From an uncultured Planctomycetota bacterium (GTDB lineage Bacteria; Planctomycetota; Planctomycetia; Isosphaerales; Isosphaeraceae), in contig CAWJTV010000013.1 of NCBI GenBank assembly GCA_963845755.1, positions 224,001-288,000 of the forward strand: 64,000 nucleotides of DNA. Reading direction: 5' to 3'. Positions 7,362 through 16,700 of the stretch are shown piece by piece. Position numbers and translations under genes: made by a program. The notes beneath the pieces were generated by a model that worked only from the letters and a program-made list of their open reading frames with translations, ran no database searches and had not been told where the DNA came from. Every line of letters starts with the position of its first letter. Position 1 is the stretch's first letter.

Positions 7362-9047
7362 ATGACCCGGGATACTGCGAAGATGCTCCCCTGGGTGGCC
7401 GGTGAGACAGTCGGGGACGTGCTGGGACGCACGGCTGGGCTGTATCCCGACCGCGATGCCCTGGTCTTCCCGGGCCTGGGACTTCGCTGGTCGTGGCGCG
7501 AGCTGGACGAGCGCGTGGACCGGATCGCCGCGTCCTTGATCGGCCGGGGAGTCGCGCGGCGAGCATGTCGGCATCTGGTCGATGAACGTCCCGGAGTGGG
7601 TGATCACGCAGTTCGCCGCCGGCCGGATCGGCGCGGTGCTCGTGAATGTGAACCCCGCCTATCGACTCCAGGACCTGAAGGACGCCCTGGCGATGGCCGA
7701 CGTGGCGACGCTGATCGTCGGCGCCCGTTCAAGGGGTCGGACTTCGTGGCGATGGTCGAGTCGCTCTGCCCCGAGGTGGCCGCCGCGACGTCGCGCGACT
7801 GGTCGTCCGCGCGGTTCCCCCGGTTGAAGCGGCTGATCGCACTGGGCGACCGGCCCGGTCCGGGCTGGTCGACCTGGTCCGAGCTGGAGGAGGGCGATGA
7901 GGCATCGCGGGCCGAGCTTGCGGATCGTGCCCGGTCCGCCCGCGCGGGCGACATCTACAACATCCAGTTCACCTCGGGCACGACCGGCCTGCCCAAGGGC
8001 GCGATGCTTACACACCGAAATGTGCTCATGAATGCGTTTTACACGGGCGAGCGGCTGCGCTACTCGGCCGACGATCGCGTCTGCGTGCCGGTGCCGTTCT
8101 ACCATTGTTTCGGCTGCGTGCTGGGCACCCTGGTCTGCGCGGTGTATGGGTCGGCGATCGTGGTGCCGGCCCCGTCGTTCGACGCGGGCGCGACCCTCTC
8201 GGCCATCGCCGTCGAGCGCTGCACGTCGGTCTACGGCGTGCCGACGATGTACGTGGCCCAGCTCGAACATCCCGAGTTCAGCCGGTTCGACCTGGCAAGC
8301 CTGCGGACCGGGATCATGTCGGGGGCGCCGTGTCCCTTGCCCCTGATGGAGAAGGTCGTGAGCTCGATGGGGATTCGCGAGATCTGCATCGGTTACGGCC
8401 AGACCGAAGCCTCGCCGATCATCACGTTCACCGACGTGGACGATCCGATCGAGGTCCGGGTCGGGACGGTGGGCCACCCGATCCCGGGGCTGGAGGTCAA
8501 GCTGGTCGACCCCGCGACCGGGCAAGAGCTGGGCATCGATCGGCCGGGCGAGCTCTGCGTGCGCGGACATTGCGTGATGGCCGGCTATTACAACAGCGCC
8601 GAAGCGACGGCGCGCGCCATCGACGGCGACGGCTGGCTCCATACCGGTGACCTGGCTCGCCGCCGCGCGGACGGCAACTACCGGATCGTCGGCCGGAGCA
8701 AGGAGATGATCATCCGGGGCGGCGAGAACATCTATCCCGCCGAAGTCGAGGAGTTCCTGCACCATCATCCGGCGGTGGCCGAGGTCGCCGTGGCCGGGCT
8801 CCCCGACGCCCGGTACGGCGAGGTGGTCGCGGCCTGGGTCGTGACCAGATCCGGCGCCGGCGTCACTCCGGACGACCTGAAATGTTACTGTCACGGCCAG
8901 ATTGCTCACTTCAAGATCCCGAAACACATCATGATCGTCGAGAGCCTTCCGCGGACGGTCACCGGGAAGATCCGCAAACACGTGCTCAGGGAAAACGCGA
9001 TCGGCGCGTTGGAACTCGGGGAAGCTGCGCGGATCGAGACGGCTTAG
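7362..9047 (+). CDS. AMP-dependent acyl-CoA synthetase/ligase; compensating indels near 7560 and 7725
   Basis: FTSGTTGLPKG, YGQTE, GWLHTGD, IVGRSKEMIIRGGENIYP, PRTVTGKIRK. Confidence 0.92.
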   Translation: MTRDTAKMLPWVAGETVGDVLGRTAGLYPDRDALVFPGLGLRWSWRELDERVDRIAASLIGRGVARRACRHLVDERPGVGDHAVRRRPDRRGARECEPRLSTPGPEGRPGDGRRGDADRRRPFKGSDFVAMVESLCPEVAAATSRDWSSARFPRLKRLIALGDRPGPGWSTWSELEEGDEASRAELADRARSARAGDIYNIQFTSGTTGLPKGAMLTHRNVLMNAFYTGERLRYSADDRVCVPVPFYHCFGCVLGTLVCAVYGSAIVVPAPSFDAGATLSAIAVERCTSVYGVPTMYVAQLEHPEFSRFDLASLRTGIMSGAPCPLPLMEKVVSSMGIREICIGYGQTEASPIITFTDVDDPIEVRVGTVGHPIPGLEVKLVDPATGQELGIDRPGELCVRGHCVMAGYYNSAEATARAIDGDGWLHTGDLARRRADGNYRIVGRSKEMIIRGGENIYPAEVEEFLHHHPAVAEVAVAGLPDARYGEVVAAWVVTRSGAGVTPDDLKCYCHGQIAHFKIPKHIMIVESLPRTVTGKIRKHVLRENAIGALELGEAARIETA

Positions 9048-9087
9048 AGTCTACCTTCGTAGGATTCCTGCGCTGTGCGCTTCTGGG

Positions 9088-9173
9088 GAATTCTGGATTC
9101 GAGATTCGAGATTCCCGATGGAACGATTTCGGGATCGGGAATCGGGAATCTCGAATCGGGAATCTCGAATCCC
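9088..9173. repeat. Inverted array of 7-mers (GATTCGA/GATTCCC ... GGGAATC/TCGAATC) between convergent genes; possible terminator
   Basis: Left heptamer run is the reverse complement of the right run. Confidence 0.7.
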
Positions 9174-9277
9174 TCTTGGGTTGCGGCCGAAGGCCGCGTT
9201 AGTCGTCGCGGGCGGGCCGGGCACGATGCGGAAGCACAGTGCCCGCGCCGCCGGGGCTCCACGGGCCGGTCGCAGCA

Positions 9278-10210
9278 TCAGCTCGGGGGAGAGGAGAGCA
9301 TGACGCCGGAAACGGTGTCCTTGTTGAGTTGGTGCGAGCCGTCGGGCCATCTGGTCGTCACGGTCGCGCTCGATTGCCACGCGCCCTGACTGATATCCAC
9401 TTCATGCACTGTATAGGTAATTCCATTCGATTCATAATACGACCTGTTGATGACGGTTCGATTCCCGTGGTTGACGGAATTGACCGTGAACGTAACGGTG
9501 ACGCCATCGGGCCGCTCGAAAGACCCGCTATAAAGGATCTTGTGAGGAGGCACGAACGTGTCCGTACGGGTCTCGGTCTCGATCTGGCCGTTTGGTTCGG
9601 TGACGGTGTTCTGGTAGAAAACGCCGCCCGGGATCGCGGTGTAGTGATCCACCACGGTCTCCGTTCCCTCCGTACCCGGCAGGGTAATCTTCTCAGTAAC
9701 TGTCACGGTCTGGTTGTTGAGTACAAACGTCTCGTCGTCCGTCTGGCTAAGGCCGTCGTAGTAAGTGGTCGTCCACTGCTCGTAAACGGGAAGGCCGGCA
9801 GCGAGGCCCGCCGCCTCCCGCGGAAAAACGTCCAAGATGGGCGGGAGGGGCGCCGCCCGAGCGACGATGGCGTGCTCAGCCTTCATGGCGTGGCCGAAGG
9901 AGCTCAAGGCGATGCGCCCCTCCAACGACAACATCGCGCCAGGGTGGAAGCGTTGAGACGGTCGCACGCCCGAACGCCCCTCAGCCACGAGTACGCCGAA
10001 GGCCCCTCCAATACAGGTCCCGAGGGACATGCTGAACAAAAGGATCGGCACAGCCATACCGGTCTCCGAACTGATCCTTGACCGACCTCCCTGGTCGAGC
10101 CACCAACCGATGGCGACCCCGACGATTCCACCGATCGCCGCACCGATCACGATGCGACGGACAACGGACAACGCGCCGTGGACTTCCTGAGCGGGTTTCA
10201 TGGAAAGCAC
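9278..10210 (-). CDS. Hypothetical membrane-anchored/secreted Thr-rich beta protein with planctomycete LExRxLL-like motif
   Basis: Two N-terminal hydrophobic segments, RFHPGAMLSLEGRIALS, Thr/Val-rich C-terminal half; start uncertain. Confidence 0.55.
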   Translation of the reverse strand: MLSMKPAQEVHGALSVVRRIVIGAAIGGIVGVAIGWWLDQGGRSRISSETGMAVPILLFSMSLGTCIGGAFGVLVAEGRSGVRPSQRFHPGAMLSLEGRIALSSFGHAMKAEHAIVARAAPLPPILDVFPREAAGLAAGLPVYEQWTTTYYDGLSQTDDETFVLNNQTVTVTEKITLPGTEGTETVVDHYTAIPGGVFYQNTVTEPNGQIETETRTDTFVPPHKILYSGSFERPDGVTVTFTVNSVNHGNRTVINRSYYESNGITYTVHEVDISQGAWQSSATVTTRWPDGSHQLNKDTVSGVMLSSPPS

Positions 10211-10326
10211 TCCTCGATGTTGCAGACACGTGCAGGATCGTTGATCTCTAGAAGCAGCATGACGAATTGGGCCGGGTTAGAGCGCCTCGCACTTGGGTTG
10301 CGCACGCGATGACGGTCGATCAGGGG

Positions 10327-10426
10327 CGGCCTGAAAGGCCGCAGGAGCCTCTCCGGCACCCCTACAGGGTGCACGAATAGAGTGCCGGGCCCGAGTCCTG
10401 GGGTTTCACCCCAGGCTATGCTCCTA
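10327..10426. repeat. REP-like palindromic element interrupted by the serine recombinase element (right arm resumes at 12439-12453)
   Basis: CGGCCTGAAAGGCCGCAGGAGC pairs 20/22 with the reconstructed GCTCCTA|CGGCCCTTCAGGCCG; internal hairpin CCTGGGGTTTCACCCCAGG. Confidence 0.75.
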
Positions 10427-12438
10427 TGACCCCAACAGAGTGGCATATAGCCCGTTGATACCTGATACTGTCATCCCTCTGAGCCGCCTCAGAGGGCGTT
10501 GAACCCGACCCTGACGCCGGATTGCTGCTTGCATGGAGGTGATCGTCCTCGCGACGTCCTACCACGGAGAGCGGACATGACACGACGATCGGCCTTGGGA
10601 CGGCACAGCCTCCGCATCCACCGGGAGTTCGTCCCCTCCCGCTGCCAGCTCCGCGCCCTGGCCTTGGCCTTCGAGCAGGCCCTCCCCATCATCCGGAGGC
10701 CGCTGACGACGCCGGCACGACCACAAATGTTCGTTGATTCTGATTTGAATTCGTTCACACAACCAGGCCGTTCGGGGGCCCTCCGATGACCGAACCCATC
10801 GACCGCCGCGCCGCCTTGTACGCCAGGGTCTCCACCGAACAGCAGGCCCAAGAGGACACGATCGCCAGTCAACTCGATCTGTTGCGCCGGCGGATCCAGG
10901 CCGATGGCCTGACCGTCGCCCAGGAACTCCAATTCGCCGACGACGGTTATTCGGGCGAGACCTTCCGGCGCCCCGCCCTGGAACGGTTGCGCGACACGGC
11001 CGCCGCCGGGGCGATCGACCGGATCTACATCGAGTGTCCCGACCGATTGGCACGGGATTACCCGTATCAGATGGTCGTGGTTGACGAGCTGCGCCGCCAG
11101 GGCGTCGAGGTCGTCTTCCTCAATCACGACCTCGATGAGAGCCCCGAGGGTCAACTGCTGTTGCAAGTCCAGGGGATCATCGCCGAATACGAGCGGGTCA
11201 AGGCCCGTGAGAAGTGTCGCCGCGGCCGGCTCTACGCGGCGCGGTCGGGCCAGGTCAGCGTCCTGGGCGGTGCCGCCTTACGGATACCATTACCACACCA
11301 AGCAGGAGGGAGGTGGCGCAGGCCCGGTATGTCGTCCAGTTCGCCGAGGCCCAGGTGGTCCGAGAGATCTTCACCTGGGTGGGGATCGAAGGATGTTCGC
11401 TCAGTCAGGTGTGCCGACGATTGCGAGAACGCGGGCTCCTTACCCGCACGGGCAAGGCGCATTGGGATCGGGCCACGGTCCTGGGCATGCTGCGCAACCC
11501 GGCTTACATGGGGACAGCCCACTTCAACAAGGTCCATTGCGTCCCGGCCCGTCCCCGGTTGCGCCCGCGTCGGGGAGTCCCCGAGTTTCCACGGCGACAC
11601 ACCGCCAAAGCGGCGACGCCCCCCGAGGACCAGATCCCGATCCCGGTGCCGGCGATCGTGGAGCCGGCCCTGTTCGAGGCCGTGCAGGAGCGGCTGGCGG
11701 AGCACCGCCGACATCCCGGCCAGGCGGCCCCCCGGCCGCGCCATCTGCTGGCGGGCTTGGTGGTGTGCCAGCGGTGTGGTTACGCGTATCGCGGTCGGGC
11801 CATGAAGAAGAAGGGAGGGAGTCGCTATGGCTATTACCGCTGTTATGGGGCGGAGGCCGAGTCCTTCGCCGGCCGGGCCCGGATCTGCGACAATCCGGCG
11901 ATCCGGATCGAACGTCTGGACGAGGCGGTGTGGTCCGATGTGCGCGGGTTGTTGCTGGAGCCGGAGCGGTTGGCTGAGGAATTCGAGCGGCGGTTGAGTC
12001 GGGCGAACCGAGGCGAGGGGACGACTCAGTCGAGTCGGAGCCTGGACAAGTTGATCGGTCAGGTCCGCCGCAGGCTGGCGCGGCTGGTGGAGATGTACGC
12101 CGACGGATACATCGAGAAGGAGAAATTCCAGAGAGATATGGATATTTCTCGAACACGAATGTCAGAATTGGAGTTGGAGCGTCGGGCGATGGACCAGGAG
12201 GAACAGCAACGGGAGGAGTTACGGTTGGTGATGGGTCGGATCGAGGAATTCGGGGCGCAGGTACGCGCCGGTTTGGATACCAGCGACGTGGCGACGCGTC
12301 GTCGGATCATTTGTGCACTGGTCAAGAAGGTCGAGATCGATGCGGAGGCGGTTCATATTGTGTATCGTGTGAGCCCTCGCCCTTTTGCCCAAACGGCCCC
12401 GACAGACGGTAACATGCCACACTGTTGGGGCCGTTCTA
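10424..12438 (+). mobile_element. IS-like minimal element encoding a large serine recombinase
   Basis: CTA at both junctions (10424-26, 12436-38); 20-bp imperfect inverted repeats 10427-10446 and 12414-12433 (17/20); excision restores a REP arm. Confidence 0.85.
10577..10789 (+). CDS. Small 70-aa protein translationally coupled to the recombinase
   Basis: ATGA overlap with recombinase start; MTRRS...FVPSRCQLRALALAFEQALP. Confidence 0.55.
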   Translation: MTRRSALGRHSLRIHREFVPSRCQLRALALAFEQALPIIRRPLTTPARPQMFVDSDLNSFTQPGRSGALR

Positions 12439-12503
12439 CGGCCCTTCAGGCCGCCGGAAATCGGCTGTCCTTATGTGCGCAACCCACGCGTAAAGCGCTC
12501 TAG
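10786..12503 (+). CDS. Large serine recombinase (resolvase + recombinase + Zn ribbon + coiled coil); frameshifts near 11273 and 11316
   Basis: YARVST catalytic Ser, DDGYSG, RPALERL, PDRLAR, PYGY, LRNPAYMG, LLAGLVVCQRCG, YYRC. Confidence 0.92.
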
Positions 12504-12699
12504 TGCCAGGTCTCGTTTCAGGCCGGTTCCTCCTCGCTTCGAGGAAAGGATCTCCCGTCCAGTCTCGCGACCGGGCGGGAGCAACCGCCTCCTTCACTTT
12601 CAATCGCGACCGGGCCACCCTCCAGACCAAGGATGACTTCCGAGAGCGGGTCTCCCCAGCGTACCTCGGGGGATCGGACGCTGGTCCGACCGGCGAAGA

Positions 12700-13320
12700 T
12701 CACGGCATCCGACCCGCGAGGGTCCCCCGGGAATGACCCGAGGCATCGGACGGAAGTCGGCGCGGAGCATCGCCTAGCCGAATCGGGGACGAATCAACCG
12801 GAGTCTGGTTCGGGGACCGGCTCGACTGTTCGCCGGGCGTTTCCGACGAGGATGGGGCCGGTGCGGTCTCCGGGACATCGCCCCGATAGAACTGACCGGC
12901 CGGCAAGACGGAGGATCGATCCCCGGACGGCCGGCCGATGCGGGGAGCTGAATTCAGGGCGTCGTTGGCAACTGTGTTGTGAGTGACGAGAGGGATGCTC
13001 GCGGCGTTGGGATCATTGGCTCCCGAGCCGACGGTGATCGTCGCGCCGGCACTCCCGCTCGATCCGGCCGTCCCCGTCGCGGCGAGGCTGGGGATGCCGG
13101 TGATGTTACCCGGCTGGATACTGGAGATCCCGCCGGAGCCCGTCATCGTGAACGACGTGGGGACGGGGGTCCCGCCCAGCGAGGCGCCGGGGAAGGGAAT
13201 GATCAGGACGTAACCACCGGTCGTCAGCACAATCACACCCAGGTCGGCTATGACCGGCAGGAGACGATCCTCCAGTTCGCAGGCTTGCAAATCGGGATGG
13301 AACTTTCGAAGCAGATTCAT
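12700..13320 (-). CDS. Hypothetical exported protein with planctomycete LExRxLL motif
   Basis: MNLLRKFHPDLQACELEDRLLP followed by low-complexity G/S/T/P region. Confidence 0.6.
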   Translation of the reverse strand: MNLLRKFHPDLQACELEDRLLPVIADLGVIVLTTGGYVLIIPFPGASLGGTPVPTSFTMTGSGGISSIQPGNITGIPSLAATGTAGSSGSAGATITVGSGANDPNAASIPLVTHNTVANDALNSAPRIGRPSGDRSSVLPAGQFYRGDVPETAPAPSSSETPGEQSSRSPNQTPVDSSPIRLGDAPRRLPSDASGHSRGTLAGRMP

Positions 13321-13751: not shown

Positions 13752-16700
13752 TCATGGATACAATCCGACAGGCGCGAAGACGTCGTCAGGTAGCTCACCC
13801 TCGTGTCCGGCCAGGACGCTCTCAGCCTCGGCGCGGAAGCCGGCCAGGTCCTGGGCGCTCCGGGCATCGAGGTTGTGCGGCTGCTGCATCCAGCGCACGG
13901 CCCGGTTGTAGCAATCGCGCGCCTGGTCCTGGTGTCCCAGCCGATGGTGCGCCTTGGCCAGGAAGAAGAGGTCGAAGGCGTCAGACTGGCCACGGCCGGC
14001 GACCAGGCTGCGCTCGAGGGTGGCGATGGCTTCGGCGTACCGGCCTGTTCGGTACAGGACGACGCCCATGGTGTTGAGGGAGGTGTCTTCGCCGGGAACC
14101 AATTCCACGGCCCGCTGGGCGAGCGTCAGCGCGCAGTTCGAGGTCGTGCCGGGGCCCGGGACCGCGGGCCAGCTCCCAGGCGCGGTTGTTGCAGCACGAG
14201 GCCAGCTTTTGCTGGAGCTGGGGTTCGTCTGATTTCATGGCCAGCGCGGCCTCCAGGTCGGCGATCGCGGGCTCGTACTGGTTCAGGATCTGATGAATCC
14301 GTCCCCGGAAATCTCGAAGGTGGGCATCGTCGGGACGCAGGCGGATGGCCTGATCGAGGTCGGCGATTGCCTCCGGAAAGCGCCTCAGGCTGGCCCGGGC
14401 ATGAGCGCGATGGTGGTAGGCGTCGGCATCGTTGGCATCGTTCTTGAGTCGGGCGGTGTAGAGCTGGACCAGCGATTCGGCGTTCTCGCTGTAGTGCTGG
14501 AGGTGCTCAGTCAGCGGGCCGTAGTTGACCTGGAGCGGAGGCAGGGGCGGCGCCGCGGGATCGGCCGGGTCGTCTTCGGAATAGGCGGGTGCGTCCCAGT
14601 CGAGGTCCATGCCGGCCAGGTGCTTGCGGATGGCGCGCAGGTCCCAGACGTGCGTAGCCGGGCTATCATTGGTGGTCACCACGAGCCGCGACCCGTCGGG
14701 GCTGAAGGTCGGCCAAACGCTGCACATGTCGGGGCTTTCGAGCCGCACCAGCGTGCGGTTGGTCTCTGTCTCCACCAGGCGGATCACCTTGCTCGCATCC
14801 TGGACCACCACCAGCCGGCCGTCCGGGGAGAAGCAGCCAGCCCTGTCGCGGATCTGCCTCACCTCGCGCCAGGTGCCGACCTCCCAGATCCGGCAGGGAG
14901 GCTCCGCTGTCATCAGCCATTTTCCATCGGGGCTGAAGACAACCTCGGTTCCCCCATCGTTGGGCAGCTCGGCGACTTTCGTGACATCACTGATGCGCCA
15001 GACCTGGGAACCGCGAACATGGCTGCCGGTCGCCAGCCATTGGCCGTCCGGGCTGATAGCGACGCCCCGGCAATCGTCCAGGGGGCCCACGCGGATCGTC
15101 CGCTCTGGAGTCGAAACATAAACATATGTAGACGCTTCACCGGCCACGATCCGGCCCGATCGATCCTCGGCGATCGCGCCATGAGACGCCGGCAAGGGGA
15201 GGCGATGCGGCGGGCCGATGCGGAATTCGCCGCGGGCGGCGTCGAGCTGGATCGGCCATCGCTGTACGCCGATGTCCCCGCTGGTGATCAGGTCGCCCGA
15301 TGGTTCGAACATCAGGTTCCAGGCGTTGCCGATCGGCAGGAAGGCGAGCTCGGTGCCGTGGGCCAGGTCCCACAGCGCCGTGCCCCGGCTCGTGCCCACG
15401 ACCAGCATCCGGCCGTCATGCCGGACCGATGGACGTCCATAACTGATCGGCTCGCGGGAAACATGGGCAAGAGACCGGTATTCCAGGGCCGGATAGACCT
15501 GGTAGGTTGTCAGTTTGTCCTCGAGCGAAACGACGATTCGTCCGTCTTGGCTGAATTCCGGGTATGAGCCGTCGGCCAAGCTCAGCACGGGCCGGCCCAA
15601 GACTGGGTCCCAGAGCCGTAGCTGCCCTTCCCAGCCGTTGCTGGCCAGCAACGTGCCCTCGGGATGAAAGGCCGTAGCGATGCCGCCATTGATATGGCCT
15701 TCGAGTGTCGCCCGCCGGATGCCGGTAATGGCGTCCCAGAGGTCGATCTTCCGATCGTTTCCCAGTATGGCCAGAGTGGCACCATCGGGGCCCCAAGCGA
15801 CGCTTCCTTCAAGAGCAACGGGGCTCGACTCGAGCTTGGTGCCGTCAGGGCCTAAGGTGACCTTTGTGCTGATGGCGAGTGGAAACGACCGAACAAGCCG
15901 GCCTGAATCTGTGTCGAGAAGCCGACATGTGGGGAGTTGCTCTTCGCGAGAGATCACGGCGATCTGAGCCCCGTCCCGACGGAATGCCAGATCGAGCGCC
16001 GGTGCTTGTCCGCCCGAGCGCCAACTGGGCTGACCAGTCGCAAGGTCGTATACCAGTAGCTCCCCATCCTCATGGACAAAGGCGATCCGCCGGCTGTCCG
16101 GGCTGAATTTGGCCGCCCTCCCCGATACGGGGCCCGGGTGGTTCAGGGAGACCGAGCGCTGGTCGATGTCCCAGACCGTCAGGGCACCGTCGGGATGATG
16201 TCGGGTCGCCAAGTAGCGGCCGTCGGGGCTGAAGCCGAAGACGGCGACGCTGCGATCACCGCGGGCTGAGAAACGGGCAACCTCCTGGTCATCGGCGACG
16301 CGGCGGACTGAGATCTTCCCATCGCGGAACCGCAGCGCGTAGCGGGTCATAGTGGAGTCGAAGGCGGCCAGGATCACATTCGGGGGCCGGTGGATGACGC
16401 GGCCAGTGGGCTTGAGGTCGGGGAGGGCCAGGGCGGCGATCGCTTCATCGCGGAGCCGGTCGAGCTGCGCGGGAGGCAATTCTAGGTCGCGGCCGATTCG
16501 CGAGGCGCGTTCCAGGGAGTCGAGGCTGTTGAACCGCTGACCGGCGCGGTGGCTGAGCCGAACGGCGCGGGCCTGGGCTGTCAACGAGTTGAAGAGGTTT
16601 TCGCGCGTCTCAGACTCGGCGCGCCGGACCCGGTCCCGCTGGTCACGGTAGGTCAAAGCCGCCACCGACGATACGACGGCCAGAGTCACCACGACGGCCA

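Follow-up and report, generated by a model that had tools for sequence, protein, structure and literature searches.

A probably self-mobilising, two-gene serine integrase unit nested in a multi-copy hairpin repeat of an uncultured planctomycete

Can a unit of only 2.0 kb, carrying a large serine recombinase (LSR) gene and inserted in a palindromic repeat, move by itself, and what decides where it lands? The question is raised by a stretch of 64,000 nucleotides (the window) from an uncultured Planctomycetota bacterium of the Isosphaeraceae (assembly GCA_963845755.1, contig CAWJTV010000013.1, positions 224,001 to 288,000). We consider it highly probable that the unit is a site-specific, self-mobilising integrase element with two genes. 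This mobility is deduced, no movement having been directly observed for the window's family. The parts of the element on which the argument turns are the following.

10424-12438: the element unit, 2.0 kb, with CTA at 10424-10426 and again at 12436-12438.
10577-10789, + strand: gene of a 70-amino-acid (aa) partner protein, a candidate directionality factor, with GGAG upstream and a stop codon that overlaps the integrase ATG as ATGA.
10786-12435, + strand: large serine recombinase gene, with the Ser16 codon at 10831-10833 and no stop codon within the element.
10425-10446, + strand: left terminal arm (right half, P', of the attachment site attP), an inverted repeat with the right arm and identical in 6/6 copies.
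12414-12435, + strand: right terminal arm (left half, P, of attP), which codes for MPHCWGR.
10425-10502, + strand: tail-coding stretch, which continues the integrase frame over the circle junction as YDPNRVAYSPLIPDTVIPLSRLRGR, with the stop codon at 10500-10502.

A search of the window's own 14.27-Mb assembly (G000) found six copies of the element, 2008-2015 bp long, with ends identical in position. Pairwise identity among them was 99.2-99.8%. Their flanks were far more diverged, with 48-92% identity over 110 bp on the left and 44-86% over 70 bp on the right, which indicates that the elements are young inserts in old, diverged members of a repeat. The left side of every copy reads as the TTTCACCCSGGG hairpin, CT, 4-5 variable letters (mostly GGGC) and TC (TT in copy C42), so that the left-flank consensus at the insertions is TTTCACCCSGGGCT followed by 4-5 variable letters and TC or TT (6/6). 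On the right side all six continue with CTG, CCG or, in the window, TA, and then CGGCC-N5-GGCCG. Boundaries and target position were thus the same in six of six copies, a comparison on which the initial annotation had staked its reading beforehand. In the general sense the unit has the attributes of an insertion sequence: 2.0 kb, six copies, terminal arms matching at 17/20 and two genes for its own mobility. The genes around it encode an AMP-binding enzyme, two open reading frames without a family and a kinase/WD40/TPR protein. No phage or conjugation genes were found among the genes flanking the element, as had been claimed from the sequence, and a sister genome lacks exactly the repeat and the element. 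A seventh trace was a solo 45-bp right end within another repeat copy (G000 C9:40974-41018), joined to the mirror arm of the host repeat via an AAC microhomology; it is a deletion derivative from which about 1965 bp of the element and the centre of the host repeat were removed.

Both attachment sites could be rebuilt from the junctions. The right end is ...GGGGCCGTTC in the other five copies, where CTG or CCG comes next; at 12436 the window copy lacks one C. The CTA that had been noted at both junctions is real in the window, while the other five copies share TCC or TCCT. These are the letters common to both junctions, and the empty sites read as left plus right flank with the core counted once. 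Shared junction letters and empty sites fit an attP x attB exchange at a 2-bp core without target duplication. With the missing C restored, the reconstructed circle junction is ...CTGTTGGGG-CCGTT-CC-TATGA-CCCCAACAG..., a dyad with a central CC, in which 12 letters lie between GGGG and CCCC and the spacer between the arms is the 6-nt TTCCTA. The arms at 10427-10446 and 12414-12433 form an inverted repeat matching at 17/20 positions; as a rough control, 200,000 random pairs of 20-mers at the arm spacing were drawn from the window, and 5 of them reached 17/20. The match given in the initial annotation was thus correct, with the right arm at 12414-12433 rather than 12416-12435 and a spacer of six rather than five nucleotides (TTCTA). 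The missing C could be either an assembly indel or a deletion specific to the window copy. The exact cut position and the crossover dinucleotide CC are putative, being placed by the symmetry of the junction.

10423-10424, + strand: putative crossover dinucleotide CC at attL, at the dyad centre of attP rebuilt from five copies and within the shared junction letters.
12436, + strand: crossover position at attR, a single C where the five other copies have CC.
12397-12430, + strand: sub-terminal inverted repeat CCCCGACAG ... CTGTTGGGG inside the coding right end, read from the sequence.

The sub-terminal repeat arises from a third copy of the arm motif (CCCCGACAG, 12397-12405), which lies 16 nt internal to the right arm and could pair with 12422-12430. 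Its layout was also kept in a second element family of the same genome (family 2) and in the relatives of that family. At the left end, a perfect 9-bp stem, CCCTCTGAG-CCGC-CTCAGAGGG, is present at 10475-10496 within the tail-coding stretch; it was not apparent in the aligned left ends of family 2.

The repeat that received the element was mapped by comparison with the sister genome, G001, which belongs to the same genus. It keeps the flanking genes in synteny (78-89% identity) and lacks both the repeat and the element. In locus L132 of that genome, around position 2584, the equivalent of window position 10279 adjoins that of 12501, leaving a single TA where the window has TA-repeat-element-repeat-TA. 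This clean single-TA site indicates that the landing pad is a mobile, TA-duplicating miniature inverted-repeat transposable element (MITE) with the integrase unit nested inside it.

10278-10279: left TA target-site duplication of the host MITE, a single TA in the sister genome at the orthologous site.
10280-10422: left part of the host MITE, with terminal repeat GAGCGCC..., a mirror hairpin at 10327-10348 and hairpins at about 10358-10375 and about 10398-10416.
12437-12500: right part of the host MITE, with the target hairpin CGGCC-CTTCA-GGCCG and the tail ...GTGCGCAACCCACGCGTAAAGCGCTC.
12501-12502: right TA target-site duplication, from comparison with the sister genome.

Palindromic and composite, the host repeat measures about 210-350 bp, is bounded by the terminal inverted repeats GAGCGC...GCGCTC and contains several hairpins. 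Often it holds a pair of target sites in mirror image, one per strand, separated by about 150 bp. Its length, terminal inverted repeats and TA duplication fit a MITE better than a classical repetitive extragenic palindromic (REP) sequence, which is a short palindrome standing by itself and classically goes with a RAYT transposase. The target hairpin CGGCC-N5-GGCCG is REP-like, with 1208 matches genome-wide; the occupied sites all lie within the composite, TA-duplicated repeat. About 61 tail motifs of the MITE were counted in the genome. The region 10280-10422 aligns with 31 empty copies of the repeat and is missing from the sister genome.

A pattern made of hairpin plus target found 31 unoccupied sites in the window's genome, which read exactly as both flanks joined, so the intact repeats do carry the predicted empty site. 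The empty site of the window (10420-10426 joined to 12439-12453) pairs at 20/22 positions with 10327-10348, as had been noted. That mirror target of the window's own MITE is empty and is not preceded by the upstream hairpin type of the occupied sites. With a looser core pattern there were 107 empty sites, and the TTTCACCCSGGG hairpin stood upstream of 18 of them versus 6/6 insertions; both half-sites therefore seem to count. The idea of a REP landing pad holds in that the target is a multi-copy hairpin, and needs amending in that the hairpin seems to be a module of a MITE and the left half-site matters too.

The enzyme is a large serine recombinase by its domains. Pfam searches gave Resolvase (PF00239, residues 9-156, E 1.6e-30), Recombinase (PF07508, residues 187-305, E 2.5e-21), which corresponds to the first DNA-binding domain (DBD1), and Zn_ribbon_recom (PF13408, residues 320-386, E 2.3e-13), which corresponds to DBD2. 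The nucleophile Ser16 (YARVS) is invariant in a four-row alignment (A1). The sequence and the predicted interface described below suggest a long helical stretch after the zinc ribbon, the putative coiled-coil of DBD2. The closest solved structure was the catalytic domain of TP901-1 integrase (E 1.6e-12), matched over the catalytic domain only, which places the enzyme far from the solved integrases.

The frame of the window copy is broken by extra letters near 11273 and at 11320. To examine them, contigs of four soil-metagenome runs of one study were compared with window positions 10000-12900. The extra letter at 11273 was missing from the contigs of all three runs that cover the site, and that at 11320 from 4/4 runs; at 12252, where three assembled copies lack a G, no covering short-read contig had a gap. 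Contigs without the extra letters mean that an in-frame gene exists in the reads, and the window frameshifts are probably not real. The initial annotation had called for a repaired gene; because both letters are missing from the contigs, the gene probably needs no repair. Among the six assembled copies the indels sit at different places, mostly in short G or C runs.

The unit is not the integrase-only one first described, for a conserved 70-aa gene precedes the integrase. This gene was kept in 21 of 23 related elements, with one truncated and one not recognisable, and its core reads ...R.FE..RLQ.QL.A.AY..L.PVV.R, with mostly synonymous differences between lineages. A profile search gave 273 clusters of 66-70 aa; the source names shown were all 'hypothetical protein', and none carried a Pfam domain. 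The partner itself had no Pfam family, and PHROG gave one match (E 0.088) in one of 16 members. Its Atlas neighbours were unnamed clusters of about 70 aa, with scores of 0.87-0.89, under the 0.9 line.

When the partner was co-folded with the C-terminal 372 residues of the integrase, the score was 0.81, versus 0.00 for the best of three controls. The mark used was reached by 116 of 157 solved complexes and by 2 of 215 mismatched pairs. The runs shared at least 64% of contacts, with a per-residue confidence (pLDDT) of at least 63 for the partner. Predicted contacts join partner residues 12-32 with residues 192-224, 310-335 and 341-354 of the integrase fragment. These stretches are the zinc-ribbon end, the two bases of the long helical insertion and the strands at the C-terminus, and the interface includes an added beta strand. 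The model supports binding of the partner at the junction of zinc domain and coiled-coil. In the parts of PMC12286644 drawn on here, verified directionality factors bind the DBD2/coiled-coil junction, mostly by adding a beta strand, and one false positive bound elsewhere than the functional factors. Because the predicted interface matches this binding mode, the partner is a candidate directionality factor. A role in excision is putative, the model being silent on the reaction favoured.

The integrase frame does not end with the element. In the window the open frame 11214-12503 extends past the element end into the MITE, and among 23 relatives all 18 unbroken integrase genes run beyond the right arm; the other five are frame-broken. 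When read over the reconstructed circle junction, the frame continues as ...HCWGRS-YDPNRVAYSPLIPDTVIPLSRLRGR-stop. Of 14 lineages examined, 13 kept the tail peptide encoded at the left end, even lineages that are distant and whose arms differ (for example ...ERVIARSRLRPWRGSRWQPA from a Phycisphaerales metagenome-assembled genome, MAG), and codons for serine were swapped (AGC/TCG) between the window's family (family 1) and family 2.

A public protein, P0148, bears on the same point. It has 472 aa with Recombinase and Zn-ribbon domains, comes from a metagenome contig of 1509 bp and reads ...GSLQHCWGRD-HAPNNVAKRSLIPDSVISRTRLRPKYGQGWQPR...DEST. HCWGRD runs straight into HAPNNVAK, as when a right end is joined to a left end, and the join is exactly that predicted for the lineage with a central AT (the AT lineage). 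P0148 is the only direct evidence of a circular or head-to-tail form, and it concerns this sister lineage and not the window's family. In the AT lineage the tail stop overlaps the start of the small gene, and a circle would be almost entirely coding.

A pattern scan of named genomes, one per species, was made for relatives, and 80 loci of the 154 found were kept. In most of the 48 loci analysed, terminal inverted repeats lay about 2.0 kb apart. Such units were found in Planctomycetota (among them Singulisphaera acidiphila DSM 18658), Ktedonobacter, Phycisphaerae and an Acidobacteriaceae MAG, and weaker or contig-edge terminal repeats were found on contigs labelled Terriglobales, Alteromonadaceae and Skermanella. 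By these sequences, relatives of about 2.0 kb occur in several phyla, each lineage inserting into multi-copy DNA. The window's own family was not found in 40 related genomes at E <= 1e-30, and the sister genome holds only an AT-lineage fragment. The layout GGGG-N5-NN-N5-CCCC fits four lineages, with central pairs CC in the window's family, CT in L056/L096, CT in the L051 group and AT in family 2.

In the two lineages nearest to the window's family the insertion is again at a hairpin foot, the hairpins being other GC-rich ones that belong to repeats of the respective genomes. L056/L096, with 71-72% amino-acid identity to the window's family, have the same flanks (2/2), and the L051 group (L051-L055 and L110; 57-63% identity) has the same left flank in 5/6 and the same right flank in 4/6. 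The pairs L079/L086 and L105/L106 each share the same flanking repeat within a genome (2/2 each), and copies in identical flanks were also present in Ktedonobacter (2/2) and in an Alteromonadaceae MAG (2/2).

The AT lineage inserts in group II intron reverse-transcriptase genes, between the GTPQGG.. and SPLLAN codons, in many Planctomycetota including S. acidiphila DSM 18658. In the window's genome it is represented by family 2, which has six copies of about 2020 bp with 66-70% nucleotide identity to the window's family and a perfect terminal repeat of 24-25 bp, inserted in both orientations at the GTPQGG/SPLLAN-coding site. These copies are located as follows.

G000 C22:849-2419
G000 C6:32348-33952
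G000 C47:14626-16228
G000 C24:687-2291
G000 C16:2839-4442
G000 C3:157337-158944

Among 25 distinct flank-pair rows from 24 loci of the AT lineage, seven were in sense and eight in antisense orientation, four were contigs with mirrored flanks and six were unclassified. A palindromic central dinucleotide removes the polarity of the exchange, a principle from work on Bxb1 and phiC31; both orientations are therefore as expected for a central AT. The copies on C47 and C3 have flanks of about 1.1 kb that are 99.5% identical on both sides, with the element inverted between the two loci; they could be copies of one intron struck in opposite orientations, an in-place inversion or an assembly variant. 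Mirror-image flanks around the element on the short metagenome contigs L029/L076, L070 and L060 likely reflect assembly collapse of copies in both orientations.

From these data the following cycle may be proposed. The recombinase, with the small protein as directionality factor, would recombine attL with attR and release a circle of 2 kb, which presumably forms in the window's organism too and would bear attP (...CTGTTGGGGCCGTT-CC-TATGACCCCAACAG...). The recombinase alone would recombine attP with attB (...CACCCSGGGCTGGGCT-CC-TGCGGCC-N5-GGCCGC...), located at the base, on the 5' side, of a GC-rich hairpin within a MITE that has dozens of copies, and the non-palindromic CC would set the orientation of insertion. 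Since the target would be selfish intergenic DNA, insertions would cost the host little and copies could accumulate.

Several observations weigh against this reading of the element. The junction letters alone allow a crossover at TC, CC or CT; the attL of copy C42 reads TT-C and CCG stands at attR in two copies, both of which fit the natural variation of targets seen in empty sites. No circle junction and no empty window site were found in the short-read contigs of the four runs, where flank coverage was thin. A scan of metagenome contigs for the two terminal motifs separated by a gap of 8-11 nt gave 15 matches, all unrelated hairpins without the element arms, and the junction pattern had 0 matches in the window's own assembly and the fetched relative loci. 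Assembled contigs drop rare forms, so that contigs free of the joint say nothing either way on the circle. At least one frame-breaking indel is present in each of the six assembled copies, and if these are real all copies are dead; the four runs may be the source sample of the genome, and their contigs may stem from other copies. The co-fold was made on our own alignments with a calibration that is only rough, and passing it is no demonstration that the two proteins bind in cells. In the AT lineage the tail had a modest codon-position bias, with 98, 84 and 146 differences at positions 1, 2 and 3, and codon pairs there were 97 synonymous versus 140 non-synonymous. Apart from these points, the contig of one run (X1) has a loose end at 10396, where it enters the left flank from sequence unlike the six known left flanks; it may mark a further insertion site in the population.

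The broken frames in 6/6 assembled copies, together with the circle and the empty site not being seen in contigs or assembly scans, are what would be expected if the six copies were dead relics that moved recently and are now all frameshifted. However, the indels vary by copy and sit in short G/C runs, the short-read contigs are in frame at 11273, 11320 and 12252, and other genes in the window are frame-broken too (for example the TPR end of the kinase gene, 13752-14108). With 99.2-99.8% identity, which means recent spread, we judge it unlikely that the copies are relics. Another explanation would deny the integrase unit mobility of its own and let a single insertion into a MITE be spread by transposition of the composite. 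All copies do lie within members of one MITE family, and the MITE is itself mobile, as its TA duplication and its absence from the sister genome tell. Yet a composite that spread as one would not have flanks 48-92% identical around inserts 99.2-99.8% identical; the MITEs around the copies also differ in architecture, for example in the order of their hairpins and the length of their tails, 31 arms of the MITE are unoccupied, and sister lineages with similar ends occupy unrelated targets. Spread by the MITE is very improbable on these grounds. We give next to no credence to the element being the stump of a larger prophage or integrative element, left with integrase and att sites after its cargo was deleted. 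Phages and large elements are the sources of most known large serine recombinases, at least in the passages of PMC10083194 used here, but a size of about 2.0 kb and the gene pair recur in six own copies, six family-2 copies and dozens of loci of several phyla, and the almost entirely coding circle of the sister lineage leaves no room for lost cargo.

The role of the 70-aa protein is a separate matter. It may be another accessory, such as an operon repressor or an integration cofactor, with the recombinase excising alone as TnpX does; enzymes of the TnpX type are not known to need a partner protein. The protein has no family match, and predicted binding to the integrase does not tell which reaction is favoured. 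On the other side, the predicted interface lies at the junction of zinc domain and coiled-coil with an added beta strand, as in the portions of PMC12286644 cited above, and in every lineage the gene and the integrase show translational coupling. An accessory role of this kind is possible, though we do not expect it.

Further features of the locus were recorded. An Rfam scan of 9800-13000 gave no RNA family at E <= 1, so that the 360-bp leader is no known RNA; it proved to be coding. Scanning 10250-12650 for promoters and terminators gave no promoter-like and two terminator-like sites, not above shuffled sequences, with a consensus that may not suit this phylum. Window positions 9044-9203 are another short interspersed repeat, with dozens of matches in the sister genome at 70-97% identity. 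The kinase gene switches frame in its TPR end (13752-14108), and the N-terminal third of the AMP-binding enzyme (7362-9047) is a poor family match. The frame-broken look of these neighbouring genes fits an assembly with many single-base indels.

Serine integrases are valued tools for genome writing, almost all are known from phages and large elements, and their excision partners are hard to find. In 2 kb the element brings together a complete kit of integrase, candidate partner and attP. With it come numerous natural variants of attB, some occupied and some empty, which give a direct reading of specificity, and several diverged lineages that differ in target and central dinucleotide. These elements also show a serine integrase nested as an insertion sequence in other selfish DNA, namely MITEs and group II introns, with a possible coupling of enzyme form to integration state. 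Tentatively, these units may make up a class of minimal integrase elements that is widespread, undescribed and equipped with a state switch of its own, the tail encoded across attP. If so, full-length enzyme with the conserved tail ...LIPD.VI.R.RLRP.YG.GWQP would come from the excised circle alone, the integrated copy would give a tail-less enzyme with a random end encoded by the flank, and tail and 70-aa partner would decide between integration and excision without host or phage input. Such a class would have been retargeted repeatedly to multi-copy selfish DNA (MITE hairpins, the reverse-transcriptase site of group II introns) with its GGGG-N5-NN-N5-CCCC core kept, the central pair setting the orientation: one for CC or CT, both for the palindromic AT. 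If the frame across attP matters, it would be a new principle of directionality for the serine integrase family.

Which known systems does the element resemble? phiRv1 of Mycobacterium tuberculosis resembles a prophage: it has phage genes, measures about 10 kb and is present once per genome, and it uses a recombination directionality factor and several copies of REP13E12. The attB of its serine recombinase, Rv1586c, lies inside that repeat according to the passages of PMC9317374 used here. Both are thus large serine recombinases with attB in a multi-copy repeat, which gives several landing sites per genome; the window element differs in having 2 kb, two genes and six copies. Tn4451/Tn4453 (TnpX) and Tn5397 (TndX) carry cargo, measure several kb, have relaxed targets and are not known to need a partner protein. 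The Tn4451 circle reportedly creates a promoter for tnpX (Lyras and Rood, 2000). Like them, the window element would use a large serine recombinase as a transposase through a circular intermediate, and the circle would make something that is absent when integrated; in the window element this is a completed reading frame and not a promoter. DUF4368 is present in 63% of the TnpX/TndX-like multi-targeting clade in the sections of PMC10083194 consulted. It was not found in the window integrase at E <= 0.01, and the enzyme, lacking this marker, is set apart from that clade by the domain alone. Durrant et al. (2022) foresaw integrases that target multi-copy sequences, as the same sections state, and the window element is a clean example of one. 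The passages of PMC10083194 in question describe no two-gene units of 2 kb, no insertion into MITEs or group II introns and no frame spanning attP. More broadly, a literature search with subscription journals and ISfinder outside its coverage turned up no published account of LSR elements of 2 kb, of an LSR inserting into a MITE or into the reverse-transcriptase gene of a group II intron, or of attP being spanned by an LSR frame.

Among insertion sequences, IS607 is also moved by a serine recombinase. Its TnpA has an N-terminal DNA-binding domain, and the element has no terminal inverted repeats and minimal target specificity, as described in parts of PMC4058570 and PMC6188088. In contrast, the catalytic domain of the window enzyme is N-terminal and is followed by the Recombinase and Zn-ribbon domains, and the element has terminal inverted repeats of 20-25 bp and a strict target. 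Because the domain order differs, the window element is not IS607-like. The serine enzymes taken from ISfinder were those of IS607 and the Tn3 family in the excerpts of PMC8989519 used, and, judged from that description, the element probably belongs to no listed ISfinder family, its domain order being unlike that of IS607. IS110/IS1111 elements insert in REP sequences and move via a circle, with a DEDD recombinase guided by a bridge or seek RNA, as far as the source portions used describe them. They share with the window element small size and the use of multi-copy palindromic repeats as safe landing sites, whereas the window enzyme is a protein-guided serine integrase and no Rfam family was found in 9800-13000. 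In SSV1-type integrases attP lies inside int and the gene is split on integration; SSV1 itself is an archaeal virus, and its Int is a tyrosine recombinase. The likeness is that the attachment site lies inside the integrase frame and that the integrated and circular forms encode different proteins, but the window element has a serine integrase and only a C-terminal tail of 25-52 aa is exchanged. The element works like a serine integrase system and lives like an insertion sequence.

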